This document shows, piece after piece, positions 4,688-41,644 of a stretch of 52,976 bases of DNA. The notes under the pieces were generated by a model. That model had not been told where the DNA came from. It was given only the letters and a program-made list of their open reading frames with translations, and did not search any database. Position 1 is the first letter of the stretch. Every line of letters begins with the position of its first letter. Made by a program: the position numbers and the translations under genes. Source of the stretch: a phage; sequence record PZ049337.1. One strand, 5' to 3'.

Positions 4688-6454
4688 TTATTGATGCGGA
4701 CCGTTCTTCTTAGTAAGTTGAACAATCTCTTTGGTTTCGAACAAGGAGTCGTCCCAAGAACGTTGAATGATTCGACCAGAGTCTGTGTCATAGTACGTCT
4801 TGAAGCCCTCTGTTTTACCACTCTTACGAGCTTTGATGGAACGAATAATAGAACAGTTTGGGTCTACTGCCTGACTATTACGCTCAAAACCAAACATACC
4901 ATGAGAATATTTAGCAGCAGCACGAGAGCCAGTAAAGTCTGACTTCTTAATACGTCCACCATCTTCATGAGGTCGCTGACCTTTTGCCACAGGGTTAAGG
5001 TGTGACAAGATATTAACATGGAACTGATATTGGTCTGCCAGCTTGGTAATGTCTGCATACAGCTTACCTAAGAAGTCGTTCTTCTCTGAGGCAGAAATCC
5101 CTTCTGATAAGTAGGTTAAGTTATCAAGAACAAACATATCAATGTCTGGACCAATCTGACGAAGAATCGTCTTTAACCCATCCCAAGTTTCATAAGGGTC
5201 TTCTCCAGCTTGCTTGCGGTCCCAAATCTCCATGTTACGAAGCATCTTCGCAGCAGTTTGACGGAACTTAGCTTCATCATATCGAGGGTCTTCACGAGTA
5301 AACGCGGGTTCCCAATATGGCAAGTTGTCGTTAAGGCCAGCCATTCGGCGTAATGTTTCCGCAGGAGTTTCCTCCATGTATGCAGTAAACACTCCCCAAT
5401 CATGCTGAACAATGTTGTGATGCACAATCTGTCGAGACAGTGTAGTCTTACCACCACCTTCTGCACCACCGATTGAGATAACTTCGGCACGACGTTGACC
5501 GAACATTAAGTCAGTCAGTTTGGGCCAAGGGTAGTCCACACCCTGTTCAACTTCGTCATCAAGCTCTTCCATAAGAAGTTCTTTGTTGACAAGTGCTGTA
5601 GGTAGAGGACGGGCAGCACGGAACACAACAGCAGATTGAGTAGCTTTAAGCAAGCCACGTTTCAAACAGTCGTTGGCATCGTTGGCAGGAAGTGTGGCAA
5701 TCATTGCACCAGGCAACAATCGACACGCTTCTTTTGCAGCTTTACGACCAGGTTCATCATCATCAAATACGATAACAACCTGCTCCCAACGTTGCTTAAT
5801 TTCTTCTGCAACTGGTGACAAACATTTGTGTACGGAATCACTTCCATCACTCAAACTAATTACAGCAAAATCCAAATCTTCATATGCACCACCACGGTTC
5901 ATAGTCTTGAGGATTTGACGCAATGCGATACAGTCTTCTTCACCTTCAGTGATGAACAATGTCTTACCGCCAATTGCTTTTGCAGCCAACCAATTGTAGG
6001 GTTCGTTGCCTTGAGTATCACCAACAGACCACATAACTTTCTTGTTCAGAAGTTTAATCTTCCAACGAACAAGTTTACCATTTTTGGTGTAGCCATGCGC
6101 CAAAGCATTTGGAGTCTTGCCATCAAACTCTGAATACAGAAGTCGGACACCAGCAGCTTTCCAAAATTCTGGTTCAATGCTGCGATGGTCTAAATCAAAC
6201 GGAGGACACGAGGTTACTTCGTCAATTTCTTCCTGAATTTCTTCTGGAGTCTTGACCTTAATTTCCGGAATATTCTCCGGATTATTGCCGTACGGATTCG
6301 GAACGAGAACGCCACATGCAAAGCAGTAACCAGAGAAGTTCTTATTACCAGCTTCATCGACATTCAACCAAACCTGTAAAGACTTGCCAGATGTGGATTT
6401 ACAGTCTGGTACATCGTGCTTAATCTTGGCAACACATTGCTTAACGTTCATCAT
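4688..6454 (-). CDS. bifunctional DNA primase/helicase (T7 gp4-like)
   Basis: N-terminal Cys4 zinc ribbon (CKSTSG...CFACG), central TOPRIM-like acidic region, Walker A GGAEGGGKTT of DnaB-type helicase. Confidence 0.8.
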   Translation of the reverse strand: MMNVKQCVAKIKHDVPDCKSTSGKSLQVWLNVDEAGNKNFSGYCFACGVLVPNPYGNNPENIPEIKVKTPEEIQEEIDEVTSCPPFDLDHRSIEPEFWKAAGVRLLYSEFDGKTPNALAHGYTKNGKLVRWKIKLLNKKVMWSVGDTQGNEPYNWLAAKAIGGKTLFITEGEEDCIALRQILKTMNRGGAYEDLDFAVISLSDGSDSVHKCLSPVAEEIKQRWEQVVIVFDDDEPGRKAAKEACRLLPGAMIATLPANDANDCLKRGLLKATQSAVVFRAARPLPTALVNKELLMEELDDEVEQGVDYPWPKLTDLMFGQRRAEVISIGGAEGGGKTTLSRQIVHHNIVQHDWGVFTAYMEETPAETLRRMAGLNDNLPYWEPAFTREDPRYDEAKFRQTAAKMLRNMEIWDRKQAGEDPYETWDGLKTILRQIGPDIDMFVLDNLTYLSEGISASEKNDFLGKLYADITKLADQYQFHVNILSHLNPVAKGQRPHEDGGRIKKSDFTGSRAAAKYSHGMFGFERNSQAVDPNCSIIRSIKARKSGKTEGFKTYYDTDSGRIIQRSWDDSLFETKEIVQLTKKNGPHQ

Positions 6455-32996: not shown

Positions 32997-33327
32997 CTAC
33001 AATGAAGAGGAACATTTGTCGCCAAGTGTAAACCTCTTCTCCTGGGCTTACAGTATTTGTAACGTACATGTTAGGCAGTGGTGTACTGTATTGTTTAAGA
33101 ATATCAATACCACCACGAATTGGGATTCCGTAAATCTTTTCAGATGCACCCCAAGCAAGGTCAAACATGTAACAGTTTAAATACTCGTTTAAATACAATG
33201 CAGACATTTTGACTGTGATTCCACGAAACTCAAAAGATACATCCTTTGAAATATCATATGGAACAGTCTTCACATATCCTGGAGGGAGTAGTGATAATAT
33301 TTCTTGCAGTGCTTGTTGTTCTGTCAT
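32965..33327 (-). CDS. hypothetical baseplate-module protein
   Basis: 120 aa within the baseplate cluster. Confidence 0.4.
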   Translation of the reverse strand: MTEQQALQEILSLLPPGYVKTVPYDISKDVSFEFRGITVKMSALYLNEYLNCYMFDLAWGASEKIYGIPIRGGIDILKQYSTPLPNMYVTNTVSPGEEVYTWRQMFLFIVDASVLERGES

Positions 33328-34226
33328 TTGAACAGCCTTCCTTTAACCGAGGACAGTGGTGAATCAAGCTTGGCTAACTTATCTTTCAAAGTTCCAAGTT
33401 GACTTACAGCAGTTGCACCAACAGCACCCAATCCAGGAAGAGAAATGCCAGCACCACCAAGAGCACCTATTCCAGCACTCTGTGCAATCTTTGCAAACTC
33501 TGAATAGTCTGTCATTGATTGCATTGCTTTTCGAGCTTCAATTGCGAGCGTATCTTCTCCGATAACTTGCAACTCTTCGACTGTGATTTCAACAGCCAAT
33601 ATTGCAGAAGTCATCTTGTCGGTTTTGGTTCGAATGCCTGTAACCACGCAATTCAAATAAGGCCCAACAATTGTGGAAATGTACAGCTTGGTTCCGTTTG
33701 CCCGAAAGCCATTAAACAATTCATAGGTAGATTGGATTCGGTTGCTTGTTTCGAACGCAGAAGCAACAGCACCAGCGGCAGAGCCTAAGATTGGTATGAT
33801 TGGGTTATTAAAGATTGCACCAGTTGCAACAGACAACCCTTGTACTGAGGCAGTCCACATGGCAGAGTTCTGCATGTTGGAAGCAACAGCAGTTAACTTA
33901 AGGACTCTGTTATGCTTGATGATGTGGTCACTGACTAAGAAGCCAGAGCTTACAGGGAACTTAGTAACTGTAGACTGCGCATCATGCTCTTCACTAACCA
34001 TTGCATCAAACTTGAAAGAGTTAAAACTCTCCGGTGCATCTGTGGTGACAAGTGATTCCATTGCCTTGGCTATTCCACCAAAGGCTTTGCCAAATAACCC
34101 TTCATCTTCCTTCTGTGCAACTGGCCCATTAGACCACATAATTACGGACGGGTTGTGTCCATAACTAAAAGCCTTTGTTAGCGTGGAGATTCCATCGCCC
34201 AACAAACTTGTATCAATTAATGCCAT
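33324..34226 (-). CDS. tail/baseplate protein (Mu gpP/hub-like by position)
   Basis: 300 aa in baseplate cluster. Confidence 0.4.
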   Translation of the reverse strand: MALIDTSLLGDGISTLTKAFSYGHNPSVIMWSNGPVAQKEDEGLFGKAFGGIAKAMESLVTTDAPESFNSFKFDAMVSEEHDAQSTVTKFPVSSGFLVSDHIIKHNRVLKLTAVASNMQNSAMWTASVQGLSVATGAIFNNPIIPILGSAAGAVASAFETSNRIQSTYELFNGFRANGTKLYISTIVGPYLNCVVTGIRTKTDKMTSAILAVEITVEELQVIGEDTLAIEARKAMQSMTDYSEFAKIAQSAGIGALGGAGISLPGLGAVGATAVSQLGTLKDKLAKLDSPLSSVKGRLFK

Positions 34227-35332
34227 TAGAAAGACTCCATCGCCATTCCACTGTTTAAATACATTTGCTGCCAGGCAGCTTCTTTACCACCCATAGCAGT
34301 ATTGCCACCAAGCATTGCTGTGATGGTAGTCTGGAAGACAGTTTCATGGGTTGAGCCATGATGAACAACTTCTGTAATGAAGTATTTATCTTCCATAGCC
34401 CAGCGGAATACACTTTGGTCAGTGTTAAGAACAACACCCTTTCCTGTAACAGACGTTACACCATTTGCAAGCAGTTGCTCTCCCAACAATGGAGACACAT
34501 CAAGAATCATCCCTGGTTGATAACTTGCATTCAGGAATGTATTCAATGAATATGTTGCAATGCCAGCAATCGGGTTGCCTATAACTTGGTTGGCATCCAG
34601 CTTGATTGGTTCACGGTCTTTCGACATTCTGTCTACGGCATCTTTATTCCCGTAGGTATCTGGGAAGATTTGAATCTCACCAGTGGTTACAGAGAACAGA
34701 AGGTTGTATTCACCAAGGAGGGTTCTGAACTCTTCCAAGAATGTGTCATGAAATACACGACCAAGTTTAAGAACAGATTTGAAAACAGATTCATCAACAC
34801 CAAAAGAAGAAATGGTTGAGAACCCATAGTCAGCACACATTGAACGAATCGCATCCTCAAGAGTTGCACCATTTGGAATGTCATTCATTTGAGTGAATTC
34901 GGTTGATGCACCATACGCTTTGGAAATGCAAAACAGTTGTGTTACATGTTCTGGTGGACGTCTGAATCCAACTGCGTTTGTAACTATGCCAGAAAAGATT
35001 GTTGGGAGCTTAGGACCAATTTCAATCCTTACTTCTGAATCCGCCTGTTCTGGACTTTGGTACTTACTATGACCAGCGCTGACTCCACGCTCGTCTTCGA
35101 AATATCCTGCACGAATTTCAATATACATATCACCATAGGTTTTGTCTTGAAGGAACTTCACTTCATCAACACCAAGGTTGTATAGAGTAATGTCGGCAGT
35201 GTCAGCAGGCCAACCAACAGTTGACCGGATGGTGAAATCAATCTTGTGTGCTTTAAACACAGACTTTGTTTCAGGGTCATCCTTACGAGAGACAACTATC
35301 TCTATACCACGCATCCACGGCATGTTATACAC
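34226..35332 (-). CDS. tail protein immediately after the tape measure gene (Mu gp43-like position)
   Basis: 368 aa; assignment by position. Confidence 0.4.
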   Translation of the reverse strand: MYNMPWMRGIEIVVSRKDDPETKSVFKAHKIDFTIRSTVGWPADTADITLYNLGVDEVKFLQDKTYGDMYIEIRAGYFEDERGVSAGHSKYQSPEQADSEVRIEIGPKLPTIFSGIVTNAVGFRRPPEHVTQLFCISKAYGASTEFTQMNDIPNGATLEDAIRSMCADYGFSTISSFGVDESVFKSVLKLGRVFHDTFLEEFRTLLGEYNLLFSVTTGEIQIFPDTYGNKDAVDRMSKDREPIKLDANQVIGNPIAGIATYSLNTFLNASYQPGMILDVSPLLGEQLLANGVTSVTGKGVVLNTDQSVFRWAMEDKYFITEVVHHGSTHETVFQTTITAMLGGNTAMGGKEAAWQQMYLNSGMAMESF

Positions 35333-35398: not shown

Positions 35399-38300
35399 TT
35401 ATCTACGTTCCATTGCACCATTACCCATGTTGATTGTTTGGGTAACAGTTTGACCGTTCGGAGTTGACACGGTTGCAGACGCTTGCTTGTTGTTCACAGT
35501 AGCTTTGACTTCAACGTTAACTACAGTAGCCTGTGTCTGACCATAAGATAGTCCATTTCTGGTGAAGCCGGTTGCACCTTCTGCAATAGAATCGCCCTGA
35601 GAAGCCCATTCGCGGTACTTCTTGACGCGGTTCTGTGCCTGTAGAGGAACAGCATTGAGCCAGTCGGTTCCGTGTTTGTTGATAGCATCATCAACAGTTC
35701 CAGCACCATCCGTATACGCCGCCATAGCCTTCTCAGCGTCACCATTATAACGCTTGAGCATTGCATCATAGTAGTCACGACCAACGCGAGCACGTTCTTC
35801 CAGTGAGTTATCACGGGCAGGTTTAACGCCGAATCCTGGGTCACGGGAAGTTGAATCAAGAACCTGCATACGACCTTTGGCACCAGTCGGAGATGTAACC
35901 ACCGAACCATCTGCGTTCAAATCGCGGTTCCCTGACTCTTCTCCTGCGATAAAGTCGTAAACATTACGTGCTGCATCGGCTGCACCGTTGGAGGTCATAC
36001 GCATCACTCTGGCTGCGTCACCGCCTGCCTCAATAAAGGTGCTGCCGTATGAGATTGCAGCTTGCGGAACAGCGTAACCAGGCAATACCCCAGCACGCTC
36101 CGTCTGCGCAATTCCTAGCTGTGCAACGCCTTCGGCATAGTTTGAGTCAGCCCCACGCTGAACGTTCGCCTCAGCCTCGCCCATGCTGTATTCTGTGCGG
36201 TCATAGGCACGAGCCATACCGTCCAGTCCAGCCATTTGCATAGCACCAGCGATACGCGCCTGACTCCAGCCTCGTTCCTGACCACGTTCGCGCATTACCC
36301 GCGCTAAGGCTACAGGGTCGCCCTGTGCCTGCCTAATGTCGCCAATGGTGATAAGACCACGGGTTCCCTGAACAATGCTCACAGCGCCGCTGGGGTCGCC
36401 ATTTAGGAGGGTGTTATAGGCACTATGTGTGGTTTGATTCAGTCGGCTGGCTTGCTGGGAATTAAGTCCTAACATCTCCATGCCCTGAGTCATGGAAGAG
36501 TATTCGTTAGGGTTATTTACACCAGCATCTAACGAGTTTCCGTAGAAGTCATTCAGACCTTCCAGAGCTTCGTTGCCAATTTGGGTAGCACCAATAGCCA
36601 TACCAGCGACACGACCCCACGGAGTCATCATCATGGCATTCATTGCACCAGTGGATAAAGAGCCAATACTGCCGCCAGCTACGCCAGCAGCTAATGCCCC
36701 ACCCATACGACCGAAGTCATCACCAAAACTGCCACCAGCTTGCCACCCACGACGTCCACCACCGCCACCAGAACCACCACCGCTAATACCATAGCTACTA
36801 GCATCAATGTTGTCCCAGAAGCCGCCTGAGCGCCCACCGTCGCCACCACCGAAATCTGCATCCTGACCACGGAGCTTGTTCTCTTCCTGTGCTGCGAGGA
36901 TACCTTTCTTAACTGACACAGCCATCAGGTCATTGCCAGTTGTGCTATCAGCGCCCACAGCAGAGGCTGTAGCAGCACCAATTCCAGCATCGGTACGGTT
37001 TCTTAAGAACGGGTCATCATCAGTGCCAGCAGCAGCACTGTATCTTGCCATTCCACGCTTGCCAGCCGTGTATCCTTCGCCTTCCCTGTGGTCACGAGTC
37101 TGGTATCCCCAGATGCCACCACCAGACATAACTTCACGAGTTGCATTAATAAGGTCTTTGCCTTCAAGGTCAGAGCTTTCCATAAACTCACGACCAGCAT
37201 TCATGCGTGCTTGTGAAGATGCAATCTTATTCTTGTTACGTTCGAACCACGTTGGGTCAGCATCAACCCACTGGCTACGAGATTCTTCGCCAACAGTTTG
37301 AGTAAATAGGGTACGACTACGACCACTCAAATGCATACCAAGTTGCATCTGGTCCATGTAGTTCGGAGTAGATTCCAAATCTTTAAAGTCGTTTGGAGCC
37401 TTATGTTCCCACAGAGCATCATCACCAATTAATCCATCTGGCGAGTACATCATGCCAGGATAGTTATCGTTAGTGATTGCACCAGTTTCTGTTATCTCAA
37501 CCCCATACTTCTCGCCAACTCTCGGCCTGGCCCATGCCTCTAATCTGTGACCACGCTCAAAGTTCTCACGCGCTCGTGGAGAATCCTTTCTTACTGTGAG
37601 GCCAATCTTCTCGCCCATTGTATGTATTGGACTATTATTGGTTGCGGGGTTGTGGCCCAGATAATCACCAATAGTAGAGCCAGTAATATCGTACTGCTTA
37701 CGAAAATCAAGCCACTCCTGCGTACCTTGTTCGAGCGCATTGTGGTATTTAACCGAACTAGGCTGTCCAGCACCAGCACTATCGAGATTTGCAATAGCAA
37801 TAGCTTCTCTTCTATCCCTTGCAGAATTCCAACTTGTCGGTTCATTCAGATTTGCCGTAAACTCTCTGGATGTACTAAGTTCAGTAGGTCCAGTATTTCT
37901 TAAACGTTCAGCAGGGTCGAAAGTTCTGCTTACTTCTGCTTCATTATATTGGTGGGCATTCTCAAGTACACCACGAATAGATGCACCAGAGTAACGAGGG
38001 TCATCACCAATATCTTTCTTGAGGTTGTCATAACCAGAACGAGCATCTGCAAGGTCTATATAACGAGATGCAGAATCAAGAATTAAATCTCGGTCAGAAG
38101 ATTGAGTGCGATAAGCATTCATCCCTCGTTCTGAGCCACCAGCATATACCTGAGCAGCAGATTTAACTACGCCAGATACATCTTGATATAAAGATTTACT
38201 TGCATCAGACCAACCTGGAGAGCCAGATAGTGATGCAGATAAAGAGTATTCAGCCTTAATGCCAGAACCCATAGAGCCTAGAGGTAGGCCAGATGCGTTA

Positions 38301-39088
38301 AGAGGTTGGCGAGGATGTTGAATATCACCAACAATAGACTCGGAACCAAGTTGAGGAAGAGAATCCATGTATGAAACTCTTGGCCCCGACTTATTACCTA
38401 CATTCATTGCAGATACGGCAGCAACTTCACGGAAGTTTTGCGGCAATTCTGATTCTAAACGTTTGGCTACACGATAAACATCTCGTGCATAGCGGTCTGG
38501 GTCGTCATATTGTTGACGGTCAACATACATATGAGCTAGGTAGCCCATAGATTTGGCAATATCTCCACGGTTTGTGGAATATTCACCCATAATATCGCCA
38601 GTGTAATGCCCAGGAAGTTCCGGCATTATATCTTGATGACCTGCCAGCGTATCACGCATGTACGCATTAAGCATTCCCCAATGGCCTTCTGGCTTGTTTG
38701 TGTTTGCTTTAGGCATGTGCATCCACACATCATCGGTGGATACACCTAATTTCTCCATGTAGGCATGAACAGCTTCTACATGGTGACTTGGACCGTTCAT
38801 TGCAGCATGGAATGTTTCAGTCAGCCCAGCACCAGAAATCATCTGTGCAATGTGAGCTGAATCTGAAATCATGTCGGAAGTACCATAAGAGATGCCATCA
38901 TCTTCTGTGTAGGTTTCTTCCATAAGCTGTGAATTTGTTTCCATCCAACCAGAGGCAGCACTTGATTCAAGTTGCTGTGCCATATCTCGTTTGCGCATAC
39001 CTGGATTGAATGACAGACCATATTGAGCGCCTAAGCCAATCAATTCGGCTTCGGACATTCTCATCAAATCTTTTATGTTATTAGCCAT
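35399..39088 (-). CDS. tail tape measure protein with lytic transglycosylase (SLT) domain
   Basis: 1229 aa; long Gly-rich tract; SLT-like AGEESGNRDLNADGSVVTSPTGAKGRMQV and following YYDAMLKRYNG...AYTDGAG. Confidence 0.75.
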   Translation of the reverse strand: MANNIKDLMRMSEAELIGLGAQYGLSFNPGMRKRDMAQQLESSAASGWMETNSQLMEETYTEDDGISYGTSDMISDSAHIAQMISGAGLTETFHAAMNGPSHHVEAVHAYMEKLGVSTDDVWMHMPKANTNKPEGHWGMLNAYMRDTLAGHQDIMPELPGHYTGDIMGEYSTNRGDIAKSMGYLAHMYVDRQQYDDPDRYARDVYRVAKRLESELPQNFREVAAVSAMNVGNKSGPRVSYMDSLPQLGSESIVGDIQHPRQPLNASGLPLGSMGSGIKAEYSLSASLSGSPGWSDASKSLYQDVSGVVKSAAQVYAGGSERGMNAYRTQSSDRDLILDSASRYIDLADARSGYDNLKKDIGDDPRYSGASIRGVLENAHQYNEAEVSRTFDPAERLRNTGPTELSTSREFTANLNEPTSWNSARDRREAIAIANLDSAGAGQPSSVKYHNALEQGTQEWLDFRKQYDITGSTIGDYLGHNPATNNSPIHTMGEKIGLTVRKDSPRARENFERGHRLEAWARPRVGEKYGVEITETGAITNDNYPGMMYSPDGLIGDDALWEHKAPNDFKDLESTPNYMDQMQLGMHLSGRSRTLFTQTVGEESRSQWVDADPTWFERNKNKIASSQARMNAGREFMESSDLEGKDLINATREVMSGGGIWGYQTRDHREGEGYTAGKRGMARYSAAAGTDDDPFLRNRTDAGIGAATASAVGADSTTGNDLMAVSVKKGILAAQEENKLRGQDADFGGGDGGRSGGFWDNIDASSYGISGGGSGGGGGRRGWQAGGSFGDDFGRMGGALAAGVAGGSIGSLSTGAMNAMMMTPWGRVAGMAIGATQIGNEALEGLNDFYGNSLDAGVNNPNEYSSMTQGMEMLGLNSQQASRLNQTTHSAYNTLLNGDPSGAVSIVQGTRGLITIGDIRQAQGDPVALARVMRERGQERGWSQARIAGAMQMAGLDGMARAYDRTEYSMGEAEANVQRGADSNYAEGVAQLGIAQTERAGVLPGYAVPQAAISYGSTFIEAGGDAARVMRMTSNGAADAARNVYDFIAGEESGNRDLNADGSVVTSPTGAKGRMQVLDSTSRDPGFGVKPARDNSLEERARVGRDYYDAMLKRYNGDAEKAMAAYTDGAGTVDDAINKHGTDWLNAVPLQAQNRVKKYREWASQGDSIAEGATGFTRNGLSYGQTQATVVNVEVKATVNNKQASATVSTPNGQTVTQTINMGNGAMERR

Positions 39089-39359
39089 TGTCTTCTTCTT
39101 TAGGTTTTAATTCGTTACGCAAATCGAGTATTGCGTGGAAGGTCAACAAATCCATAATAGAGTAGGTCCCATCTTGTAACTCTTTAAGAGAACAGAGTGA
39201 ACTGTCCTCTATTACAGGACGGTGCAAGAAGTATTTTATTTCCGGGAACTTTGCAGTTAAATCGTTTCCGGACTCGAATTCTTCTGCTCGGCCATCTTGG
39301 ATGCTTCCACCGCCTCCAATCGTCTGCGTTCGTTGAGTTCGAGCCCTTGCTTGAAAAAA
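39081..39359 (-). CDS. -1 frameshift extension of the tail assembly chaperone (G-T type)
   Basis: Slippery heptamer T_TTT_TTC at 39353-39359 (codons D119-F120-F121); the -1 frame is closed by TGA immediately before it and then open for 92 codons to a TAA overlapping the tape measure ATG. Confidence 0.5.
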   Translation of the reverse strand, partial: FFQARARTQRTQTIGGGGSIQDGRAEEFESGNDLTAKFPEIKYFLHRPVIEDSSLCSLKELQDGTYSIMDLLTFHAILDLRNELKPKEEDNG

Positions 39360-39715
39360 TCAAGGAAGTTCGATTCCAAAACAAATGCAAACACATGGTG
39401 CATGAGCATCAAGTTGCCGTTGTATTTCATTTGCATAGTGCGTGGAGTAACTTCGACACCATCAATGGTTGCCATGCACACTACACGTTTAATTAATTCT
39501 GTTACTTCGTTACTCGTCCCACCTTGCTGCATTAAATAAATAATGTCTGCAAAGTTATATTTATTCTCAACGAACGGGAAGATTGAAGTTCCGAGTTTCT
39601 GAACAAGCTCGACTTGAAGGTCAAGAGCTTGGCTGGCACCCAATTGACGAGTACCAACCAAGACAACATCACCAGAGTCGGCTTGTAACTCGCGTTGACG
39701 AAGTTCACAAGCCAT
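39257..39715 (-). CDS. tail assembly chaperone
   Basis: 152 aa between tube and tape measure; contains the slippery site. Confidence 0.55.
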   Translation of the reverse strand: MACELRQRELQADSGDVVLVGTRQLGASQALDLQVELVQKLGTSIFPFVENKYNFADIIYLMQQGGTSNEVTELIKRVVCMATIDGVEVTPRTMQMKYNGNLMLMHHVFAFVLESNFLDFFKQGLELNERRRLEAVEASKMAEQKNSSPETI

Positions 39716-39730
39716 GCTCTTACCTTAATG

Positions 39731-40186
39731 TTATACGCCGATTTCTGGATACTGACCAGTTACGATGGTGAGGCGCTCTACAAAGATAGCCCACATGTTG
39801 GATGTAAAGGTTACACCACGAACAATAGCAGGCTGTTGTAGGATTGCACCGTTAACACCGTTAACCAGAACGTCACCCATCTTATCCACCAACTGAATCT
39901 GCAAAGGTTCCCACAGAGATTTGTTACCAGACAGGCCAGTTGCACGAGTAAGCTGTGCACGTTGATACAGAATTTCGTTCCAGTCTGCCGTTTGCAGCAG
40001 GGGGAAAGTAATAACCCCCGACTGGTCAGCAGTGGTTGCTACAGCAAGTTTACCGTAAGCATCCATTACAGGAACATGTTGTGGCACGTTGTAGCGTGCC
40101 GTAATTACAGATTGCCCTGCCTGAAAACCGTCTACACGAGCACCGTCAATCAGGAGGTCTGTATTATAAAACGAATATTGCTTCAC
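39731..40186 (-). CDS. tail tube protein
   Basis: 151 aa immediately downstream of the sheath gene. Confidence 0.55.
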   Translation of the reverse strand: MKQYSFYNTDLLIDGARVDGFQAGQSVITARYNVPQHVPVMDAYGKLAVATTADQSGVITFPLLQTADWNEILYQRAQLTRATGLSGNKSLWEPLQIQLVDKMGDVLVNGVNGAILQQPAIVRGVTFTSNMWAIFVERLTIVTGQYPEIGV

Positions 40187-40195
40187 TGTTCACCC

Positions 40196-41644
40196 TTACT
40201 GAATGAAGTTGCCAGAGATTACAGCACCCTGGATTGCACCGGAACCGATAGCAATAAAGGAAGTACCTTCCCAAATACGTTCACCCTTCTGCGACTGCAA
40301 GAGTTCTAACGGGGTGGAGATAACTTTGTAGCCTTCTGGGTAGAAGACGCCTTCGTTATCGTAGCCAGGGGCAATGAGGCCGTTAGTCTTGGCGAGTTCG
40401 AGCGCCAGGGTTACTTGTTGGTTAACCATCGCTACACCAGTGTCCGTCCAAGGAATCTTAGTATTGGAGGTGTAGAACAAGTTGAACACATTCAGTCGAA
40501 CTTTCTGGGTAAGCCATTCAACACCCTGTACGGAGTCGAACCATGTGCCATCAGCCATACGACCGTTGTAGAACATCACGTTGCCAGCAACAGAAATGAA
40601 TGCGTTACCACCACAAGAAAGCAGTGCACTTAACTGGCCAGAAGACAGGTCAGCAGTGGAAATACCTGGACCTTTCTTGTATGCCAGAATAAGAACAGAG
40701 TTTGCAACGTTAAAGTTGACAGTTGATGCACGACCCAGGATAGAAATTTCCGGATATTCGTCACCATTTGCAGAAGCATCGTAAACACACAGAGTGTTAC
40801 GCAGGTTCTGGTTCTTAGCACGACGGAAGCTGTTATCAGTACCGTTGATAAGAATGTTCTTGTCGTTATCGCCCCAGCCAAATACTTTGCTGGATGCTTC
40901 ACACCACTTCGCCACAGACATTTGGTTGTCTACTGGAGCAGACTTGCCACGATACTTGCGGTCAAGACCTACATAGAAGAAGTTAAATGGGGCATCTACA
41001 ATAGCAGCCAGGTCAGAGGAAATAGACAACTCGTTCTTGCCACCAACAATGACTGCACTGTCGGAAGATTGCAGCTTCAACACTTCCCCAACTTTACCAC
41101 CAACGTTGCTGATAGTTGCGTTAGCGCCAGTTGCAGAAGTAGTCAGCTTAAACTTGCCAGCATCTTGAGTAACAGTTACGCCAGCACCAGCAGAAGACAG
41201 TGCAGTAGTTACCAGAGTTGCAACTTCTTCAAAGTCTCCAGCAGAGGAGAAGTTAATCGGGTCAGTGACATACTGAACACCACTAACACTCAGCTGTAGG
41301 GTTGCAGCAGTTTCCAGCTTAATCGTTGACAGTACACCAGCAGATGCAGCAGTGACAGTGGCAGGAGTTGCTGGAGTCATTGTATCATTCTTGATAGCGC
41401 CGACCAGGAAAGTCTTCGGAGTTGGCTTCTGCGAGTACCAAGTGGTAGCAGCTTTAGCAATCTCACCACCAGGGAAGTCTGCAAGAACTTCTTTCAAGCT
41501 GGTGTAAGAGCGAACCGGATATACATCAACGGTTGGTACAAACTCTTTGCTCAGGAAGAGCAACGGCCCAAAACCATCAGTCGCAATGGCGTTCGGGGAG
41601 ATTGCGATATCAACCTGAACTAAGTCAGAAATTGGGATTGACAT
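40196..41644 (-). CDS. contractile tail sheath protein
   Basis: 482 aa, Ala/Thr/Ser-rich; sheath-tube-chaperone-tape measure order. Confidence 0.65.
   Translation of the reverse strand: MSIPISDLVQVDIAISPNAIATDGFGPLLFLSKEFVPTVDVYPVRSYTSLKEVLADFPGGEIAKAATTWYSQKPTPKTFLVGAIKNDTMTPATPATVTAASAGVLSTIKLETAATLQLSVSGVQYVTDPINFSSAGDFEEVATLVTTALSSAGAGVTVTQDAGKFKLTTSATGANATISNVGGKVGEVLKLQSSDSAVIVGGKNELSISSDLAAIVDAPFNFFYVGLDRKYRGKSAPVDNQMSVAKWCEASSKVFGWGDNDKNILINGTDNSFRRAKNQNLRNTLCVYDASANGDEYPEISILGRASTVNFNVANSVLILAYKKGPGISTADLSSGQLSALLSCGGNAFISVAGNVMFYNGRMADGTWFDSVQGVEWLTQKVRLNVFNLFYTSNTKIPWTDTGVAMVNQQVTLALELAKTNGLIAPGYDNEGVFYPEGYKVISTPLELLQSQKGERIWEGTSFIAIGSGAIQGAVISGNFIQ

Follow-up and report, generated by a model that had tools for sequence, protein, structure and literature searches.

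The tail assembly chaperone gene of the phage in sequence record PZ049337.1, here called G, very probably encodes two proteins, the second of which would arise by a programmed -1 ribosomal frameshift on the slippery heptamer T_TTT_TTC and consist of G fused to an extension, T, that is read in the -1 frame, with a total length of 211 amino acids (aa). The whole stretch of 52,976 nucleotides (nt) that was analysed is referred to as the window; all coordinates are window positions, and the genes of the locus all lie on the minus strand (Table 1). A frameshift at this place had been put forward in an earlier reading of the window (the original prediction), in which it was assigned to the conserved G/G-T arrangement of tailed phages, and that assignment is supported by the gene order, the chaperone family, the phase of the slip site, the geometry of the frames and, above all, by comparative conservation.

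The heptamer starts at offset 356 of G (mod 3 = 2) and is in the X_XXY_YYZ phase (GA followed by T TTT TTC), which places it in the zero frame of the chaperone as had been claimed. It is the sole in-phase heptamer of this form between the opening of the -1 frame and the stop codon of G, which follows 31 codons further on. The codons of the -1 frame read ..CT TGA TTT TTT CAA GCA.., and a TGA abutting the 5' side of the heptamer therefore closes this frame directly upstream; 92 stop-free codons follow, and both features agree with the earlier description. The -1 open reading frame (ORF) shares 103 nt with G and extends 8 nt into the next gene, which occupies the tape measure position and whose ATG stands in the context ATGGCTAA. 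The TAA of the -1 ORF had been thought to overlap the tape measure start codon, and although the two ORFs do overlap by these 8 nt, the TAA falls on codons 2-3 of the downstream gene and not on its ATG. The predicted fusion, composed of G residues 1-119 and T, has a computed length of 211 aa and a mass of 23.8 kDa, which replaces the earlier estimate of about 213 aa, and the zero-frame product of G has 152 aa and 17.2 kDa. The fusion is predicted to contain the junction peptide YNGNLMLMHHVFAFVLESNFLDFFQAR and the T-only peptides AEEFESGNDLTAK, YFLHRPVIEDSSLCSLK and ELQDGTYSIMDLLTFHAILDLR.

The strongest support for the frameshift is comparative, and part of it is the conservation of the heptamer. 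The locus was compared among 24 annotated relatives in GenBank, which yield 18 distinct sequences with the window included and were recorded from Escherichia, Yersinia, Shigella, Pectobacterium, Erwinia, Pantoea, Proteus, Vibrio, Aeromonas and Shewanella, and among 68 loci that a G profile retrieved from IMG/VR. With the exception of Faunus, whose G_TTT_TTC nevertheless retains the shift-prone A-site tetramer U_UU.C, all distinct GenBank sequences analysed have T_TTT_TTC in phase, at G identities down to 29%. An in-phase T_TTT_TTY was seen in 68/68 IMG/VR loci (54 with C and 14 with T at position 7), a set for which the peptide pattern contained [DAS]FF, so that the Phe-Phe motif was selected for and the nucleotides were not. 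Over the two sets, the lowest G identity is about 25%. The -1 ORFs are 90-99 codons long in the GenBank set, where they reach the start of the next gene, and 75-108 codons long in the IMG/VR set, except for one locus truncated by the end of its contig; in the latter set they end no more than about 30 nt from where a long ORF starts, in every locus that extends that far. The same two-frame layout is present in 74 distinct sequences that derive from independent isolates and metagenomes.

The choice of synonymous codons was examined in 47 clusters formed at 80% nucleotide identity. The codon that precedes the two Phe codons varies (GAT, AGT, GCT, TCT), its third base is T in 47/47 clusters, and the first Phe codon is TTT in every cluster as well. 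TTT makes up 0.45 of the Phe codons in the same loci and GAT 0.57 of the Asp codons; the corresponding naive probabilities of fixation in 47 clusters are ~8e-17 for TTT and ~5e-12 for GAT, values which are only indicative because of the relatedness of the clusters, though at the divergences compared synonymous sites have reached saturation. As expected for a G/GT pair, the slippery sequence thus appears to be conserved beyond what the protein requires. The +1 frame, by comparison, stays open after the site for 2 to 85 codons among the relatives, and no pattern is seen.

A further interpretation is that U_UUU_UUY, embedded in the conserved motif N[FY]x[DAS]FF, is an ancient and invariant slip site of the whole Phage_TAC_15 family, comprising Chaseviridae and many uncultured relatives, and not a typical G/GT site that is used late and at a low level. 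In view of the position of the site 31 codons before the G stop, where the folded G domain ends, and of a -1 frame that is no less constrained than the zero frame in the overlap, G-T would then be a major product, made with unusual efficiency and no recognisable RNA stimulator, or else the zero-frame tail of G would be nearly dispensable. Such a role is considered unlikely, and a G/GT-type frameshift of the usual kind is the preferred explanation.

Further support for this G/GT-type frameshift is provided by the coding signal of the -1 frame, which was assessed from pairwise differences at each codon position in 23 distinct loci. Beyond the G stop, the -1 ORF shows differences of 0.29, 0.16 and 0.57 at -1 codon positions 1, 2 and 3, and G itself shows 0.37, 0.23 and 0.59 at the respective positions of its own frame; judged by this comparison, both patterns are typical of coding sequence. 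Within the overlap of the two frames, nucleotides vary most at position 3 of the -1 frame, which coincides with position 2 of the zero frame, and least at position 2 of the -1 frame; among nine ungapped sequences with the geometry of the window, the mean pairwise amino acid identity amounts to 0.85 for the -1 frame and 0.81 for the zero frame. By these measures the constraint on the -1 frame in the overlap is no weaker than that on the zero frame and, together with the coding pattern 3' of the G stop, this indicates that reading in the -1 frame begins at the heptamer. The -1 peptide is alignable over 55 unique sequences and consists of a Gly-rich linker, which varies, and a C-terminal block, which is conserved and reads FPxIxYFLHRPxIEDSSLCxLxELQDGTYSxxDLLxFHxILDLR in the clade of the window and ATLxELETxWSLDDVxRANALLDM in distant clades. 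The C-terminal 50 residues of T match phrog_4364 (1e-17). Purifying selection therefore acts on the extension in the shifted frame, which is a further hallmark of G/GT pairs.

The same fusion protein (..DFFQAR..) would be obtained by transcriptional slippage if RNA polymerase were to add one U within the T run, and since this insertion and a -1 ribosomal slip yield identical proteins, sequence cannot separate the two. The slip site is indeed a homopolymeric run, which is lengthened to TTTTTTT in 14 of the 68 IMG/VR relatives. However, the run comprises six T in 63 of the 74 distinct sequences, seven in 10 and five in one, and efficient slippage by bacterial RNA polymerase reportedly needs runs of about 8-9 or more, as is said to have been found by Wagner et al. 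in 1990 and Baranov et al. in 2005. Selection for slippage would favour longer runs, yet a C is kept at position 7 in most sequences. The motif moreover obeys the ribosomal X_XXY_YYZ rule exactly and belongs to a class that is efficient in E. coli (PMC4066793). Slippage of the polymerase is accordingly regarded as an improbable source of the fusion, and a shift by the ribosome is retained as its explanation.

A separate question is whether T requires a fusion for its translation, and the original prediction had stated that the extension lacks a start codon. This holds in so far as no conserved start codon occurs in the -1 ORF among the relatives, where candidates are scattered and most of them have no Shine-Dalgarno (SD)-like sequence; Pantoea phage SSEM1 has zero ATG, GTG or TTG over all 95 -1 codons, and 4HA13 has a single candidate start at codon 69 of 92. 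It does not hold to the letter for the window, in which a TTG at 39227 opens a mechanical ORF of 48 aa. On this basis the 3' part of the -1 ORF could be an independent small gene, translated alone from this TTG with no fusion being made, and the piece has in fact been annotated in several phages: exactly these 48 aa are labelled as a hypothetical protein in PYps3T (ORF069), 2KOFFS (_0042) and BSBP01, and small hypothetical genes are found at T also in phiEcoM-GJ1 (gp61), PM1 (PM1_050), PP101, Myduc, ZPAH140, SppYZU05 and pAh6-C. The TTG has no SD-like sequence upstream, however, and is missing in PYps23T and locus L024, which are ~90% identical; the annotated starts vary from phage to phage, and SSEM1 does without any start codon in frame. 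Conserved T residues (DLxxxFPxIxYF) lie upstream of the TTG, and conserved residues and the coding pattern reach back past every candidate start to the heptamer. The lack of an SD-like sequence, the lack of conservation and the conserved residues upstream identify the 48-aa ORF as an artefact, and the small hypothetical proteins annotated within T in other phages are, by the same sequence features, best regarded as annotation artefacts too. An independent small gene is hence highly improbable, and the second ORF appears instead as the startless, overlapping partner of G that ends near the tape measure start, as is characteristic of the G/GT arrangement.

Proteins that are already in the databases are in keeping with a frameshifted T. 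A joined coding sequence for G-T is given in 0/24 GenBank records, and a search with the fusion among 5.8 billion proteins found none in which G and T share a single frame. The search retrieved 26 homologues of 132-158 aa that correspond to the G part only and, nearly all of them, cover 58% of the query, and it follows that no lineage with G and T fused in one frame is represented among them.

The frequency with which such an arrangement occurs by chance was estimated from all window ORFs of at least 100 codons, shadow ORFs included (17,361 codons in total). They contain 34 in-phase X_XXY_YYZ heptamers, and the -1 ORF extends well past the stop of the host gene for only 2 of the 34; a third overshoots by only 68 nt. 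TTTTTTC itself occurs in three copies in the whole window when both strands are counted, and the copy in G is the only one in phase. The second heptamer with a long -1 ORF, T_TTA_AAC at 34253-34259 (minus strand), is located 11 codons before the stop of a baseplate-hub-like gene (34226..35332), and the -1 frame that follows it is simply the next gene (33324..34226). It was rejected as a chance occurrence because it is not conserved in phiEcoM-GJ1, which has TAT GCT AAC at this place, or in Erwinia phage Y2, and it serves as an internal negative control. A chance combination of heptamer and open -1 frame in the chaperone gene, or a sequencing indel in what is a single gene, could draw on the 34 in-phase heptamers and on this second site that also leads into a long -1 ORF, but the second site is unconserved whereas the chaperone heptamer is kept with the same layout in 74 distinct sequences and the protein database holds no single-frame version, and the comparative data effectively refute this reading, for which hardly any likelihood is left.

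Several observations weigh against a programmed frameshift in G. A downstream stem-loop or pseudoknot, proposed as a check in the original prediction, found no support: the downstream folds of 73 and 123 nt are no better than those of shuffled sequences (z 0.13 and 0.32), RNAalifold returned 0 consensus pairs for 27 sequences and an Rfam scan gave no match. An upstream SD-like element is absent as well, since TTG GAA TCG AAC TTC CTT GA contains no GGAG, GAGG or AGGA. A full-text search, confined to the searchable library, returned no report of a G-T frameshift in Chaseviridae and no proteomic evidence for one. To these are added three points raised above: the identity of the product with that of a one-U insertion, the selection of the IMG/VR loci for Phe-Phe, and the fact that the 47 clusters are not phylogenetically independent. 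Neither a stable, conserved 3' RNA stimulator 5-9 nt downstream, as in IS3, dnaX and viral pseudoknots, nor an SD-like stimulator ~6-17 nt 5' of the site, as in dnaX, was observed. When 17 relatives were folded and compared with shuffles, z fell below -2 only in Myduc (at both lengths folded) and SppYZU05 (at 110 nt).

One candidate structure was considered and rejected. This is a long-range helix of 9 bp between the arms GGGCUCGAA and UUCGAGUCC, of which the 5' arm begins 6 nt after the heptamer and which is present in the minimum free energy fold (z 0.13). It can pair in 64.6% of cells in 27 relatives as compared with 61.7% in shuffles, shows no convincing covariation and is restricted to the E. 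coli/Pectobacterium clade, where the arms are not free to vary because both are dual-coding.

A different feature was noted in a distant clade that is characterised by the motif LEVNF (IMG/VR loci L046-L090). Its Glu-Val codons are GAG GTN in 31/37 sequences, which gives an SD-like GAGGU ~11 nt upstream of the heptamer, a spacing known to stimulate -1 shifting in dnaX. Glu is encoded by GAG in only 10/33 sequences of the EA/ES clade, to which the window belongs. GAGGU may be a stimulator that is specific to the LEVNF clade or an effect of base composition.

The mechanism that is proposed for G and T is as follows. Most ribosomes would read G to its own stop and thereby produce the 152-aa chaperone. 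A minority would slip on U_UUU_UUC while tRNA-Phe is paired with UUU (P site) and with UUC (A site), and both tRNAs would be able to re-pair perfectly with UUU UUU one base back. The -1 frame would then be read for 90 further codons, and G residues 1-121 (...DFF) would be followed by QARAR...EEDNG until translation terminates inside the next gene. Heptamers of the form H_HH.U_UU.Y are among the most efficient -1 motifs in E. coli, and U_UU.U_UU.C, which is under-represented in E. coli genes and used by insertion sequence (IS) elements, shifts at >0.1% without a stimulator (PMC4066793). As no stimulator is evident, a low rate of slippage, between about one and a few percent, is probable at the present site, and the efficiency is most likely of the order of that of lambda G/GT, for which the ratio is 30:1 (PMC5009743). 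By analogy with lambda gpG and gpGT, the G part common to both forms would coat the tape measure protein or bind to it, the T part would bind the tail tube protein and recruit it, and polymerisation of the tube around the tape measure would be started in this way; neither G nor G-T would stay in the virion (PMC5009743). From this analogy we infer the tape measure protein and the tail tube protein as the binding partners of G and T.

The location of G between the tail tube and tape measure genes is that of a G/GT pair, and the order of sheath, tube, G and tape-measure-position gene is the same in 24/24 annotated GenBank relatives. Homologues of the tube gene are labelled tail tube protein in GenBank relatives, and those of the gene at the tape measure position are labelled tape measure protein in PYps23T, 4HA13 and PP101. 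The sheath gene suggests, by context, that the tail is contractile. G scores 55.5 bits against Pfam PF21822, Phage_TAC_15 (gathering cut-off 22; E 1.1e-14; residues 23-126), a family which is present in 26/26 database homologues of G, and it matches phrog_11820, tail assembly chaperone (8e-58). The DNA of the locus is 97% identical to that of Escherichia viruses TH26 and TH37 and Yersinia phage PYps3T, and ~74% identical to that of phiEcoM-GJ1, all of which belong to the subfamily Cleopatravirinae of the family Chaseviridae.

Table 1. Features of the chaperone locus and its surroundings (window positions)
Feature	Position	Strand	Details
Tail sheath gene	40196..41644	-	482 aa; phrog_205 tail sheath 5e-95, Pfam PF11863
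Tail tube gene	39731..40186	-	151 aa; directly upstream of G; phrog_280 2e-30
Gene G, tail assembly chaperone	39257..39715	-	ATG 39715-39713, TAA 39259-39257; 459 nt
Slippery heptamer T_TTT_TTC	39359-39353	-	plus strand GAAAAAA; last base of Asp119, Phe120 and Phe121
Putative -1 extension T	39081..39359	-	92 sense codons, FFQARAR to KEEDNG; TAA 39083-39081
Dual-coding overlap	39257..39352	-	~96 nt; zero frame, G-only tail KQGLELNERRRLEAVEASKMAEQKNSSPETI; -1 frame, start of T QARARTQRTQTIGGGGSIQDGRAEEFESGND
Mechanical 48-aa ORF (artefact)	39081..39227	-	inside T; TTG 39227 is -1 codon 45
Candidate 9-bp helix (rejected)	39270..39346	-	5' arm 39346-39338; 3' arm 39278-39270
Tape-measure-position gene	35399..39088	-	1229 aa; ATG 39088-39086; YqaJ-like and SLT domains

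An AlphaFold model of G, based on 25 homologues, has a pLDDT of 84.6, and the slip site maps to its last long helix at the point where confidence begins to drop, so that the shift is predicted to coincide with the end of the folded part of G. No significant match was returned by Foldseek for the G model, and a sequence search of the fusion against solved structures gave no meaningful match. A single-sequence model of T alone is poor (pLDDT 49.8).

The 1229-aa protein at the tape measure position has an internal YqaJ-like nuclease domain (aa 458-590; Pfam 7e-11, RecE-like PHROG matches) and a C-terminal SLT lytic transglycosylase domain (aa 1064-1140). A nuclease domain within a tape measure protein is unusual, and the same YqaJ/SLT architecture is seen in Hafnia locus L097. 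This locus is one of two from Hafnia alvei (L097, GCA_002206365.2; L098, GCA_016103045.1) in which a complete Chaseviridae-like structural module is located in chromosomal contigs of 4.8 and 1.6 Mb; the module comprises capsid, sheath, tube, a TAC gene (6001-6426) with T_TTT_TTC and a -1 ORF of 90 codons, and a YqaJ/SLT tape measure gene. Since Chaseviridae are regarded as strictly lytic, the Hafnia module could represent either a relative that has integrated or an artefact of assembly. A further relative, PP952070.1, is recorded as 'Staphylococcus phage Pel53' with the host Staphylococcus hyicus; it has ~73% DNA identity to the locus and the same chaperone, and the host label looks doubtful.

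The G-T pair is another case of the known G/GT strategy, and what it uncovers is a gap in annotation and not new biology. Comparative sequence data make it a well-supported case in a myovirus family, with a slip site that is unusually invariant and no evident stimulator. It leaves the understanding of phage tail assembly and of frameshifting unchanged, and a specialist would not be surprised by it. The G-T product is nevertheless missing in the 24 sampled GenBank records, in which the 3' part of T is often represented by a spurious small hypothetical gene. A single annotation rule, T_TTT_TTY inside N[FY]xxFF followed by a -1 ORF that extends to the tape measure start, would correct all 24 of them and many metagenomic relatives. 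Phages of the Chaseviridae are under development for use against E. coli, Erwinia, Pectobacterium, Aeromonas and Yersinia, and it is therefore of some use to have their tail assembly proteins listed correctly.

Among known frameshift systems, bacterial IS elements share the heptamer U_UUU_UUC, which is efficient in E. coli and used in transposase fusions, and the same tandem slippage of tRNA-Phe (PMC4066793). Unlike the chaperone gene, where none is supported, IS sites are usually accompanied by a hairpin or pseudoknot on the downstream side or by an SD-like stimulator on the upstream side. The locus also resembles the E/E+E' genes of phage P2 and the chaperones of Mu-like myoviruses, with which it has in common the contractile tail, the order of sheath, tube, chaperone pair and tape measure, and a -1 shift that extends the chaperone; the likeness is one of gene order and shift. 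P2 uses a different slippery sequence, on which the efficiency is 2-3 times that of lambda. Frameshifting of the P2 type is mentioned in a review of the established G/GT mechanism and its wide conservation in long-tailed phages (PMC5009743).

The present case differs from lambda in several respects. The heptamer is U_UUU_UUC (Phe-Phe) as opposed to G_GGA_AAG, and its position 31 codons before the G stop leaves G with a tail of 31 residues of its own and makes ~96 nt dual-coding. The phage is a contractile-tailed myovirus, G is a member of Pfam Phage_TAC_15 with no detectable sequence similarity between the pair and lambda G or T, and G-T is here a prediction from sequence. The lambda gpG/gpGT pair and the conserved G/GT arrangement were reportedly described by Levin et al. 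in 1993 and by Xu, Hendrix and Duda in 2004, 2013 and 2014. The absence of an evident RNA stimulator is a point of likeness, as lambda G/GT is not known to have one either. Both phages have a pair of overlapping ORFs that is flanked by the tail tube or major tail gene on one side and by the tape measure gene on the other; the second ORF of the pair is read in the -1 frame and lacks its own start codon, and a canonical X_XXY_YYZ heptamer is situated within the overlap. As in lambda, a short abundant form and a longer rare form with a common N-terminal domain are the predicted products.

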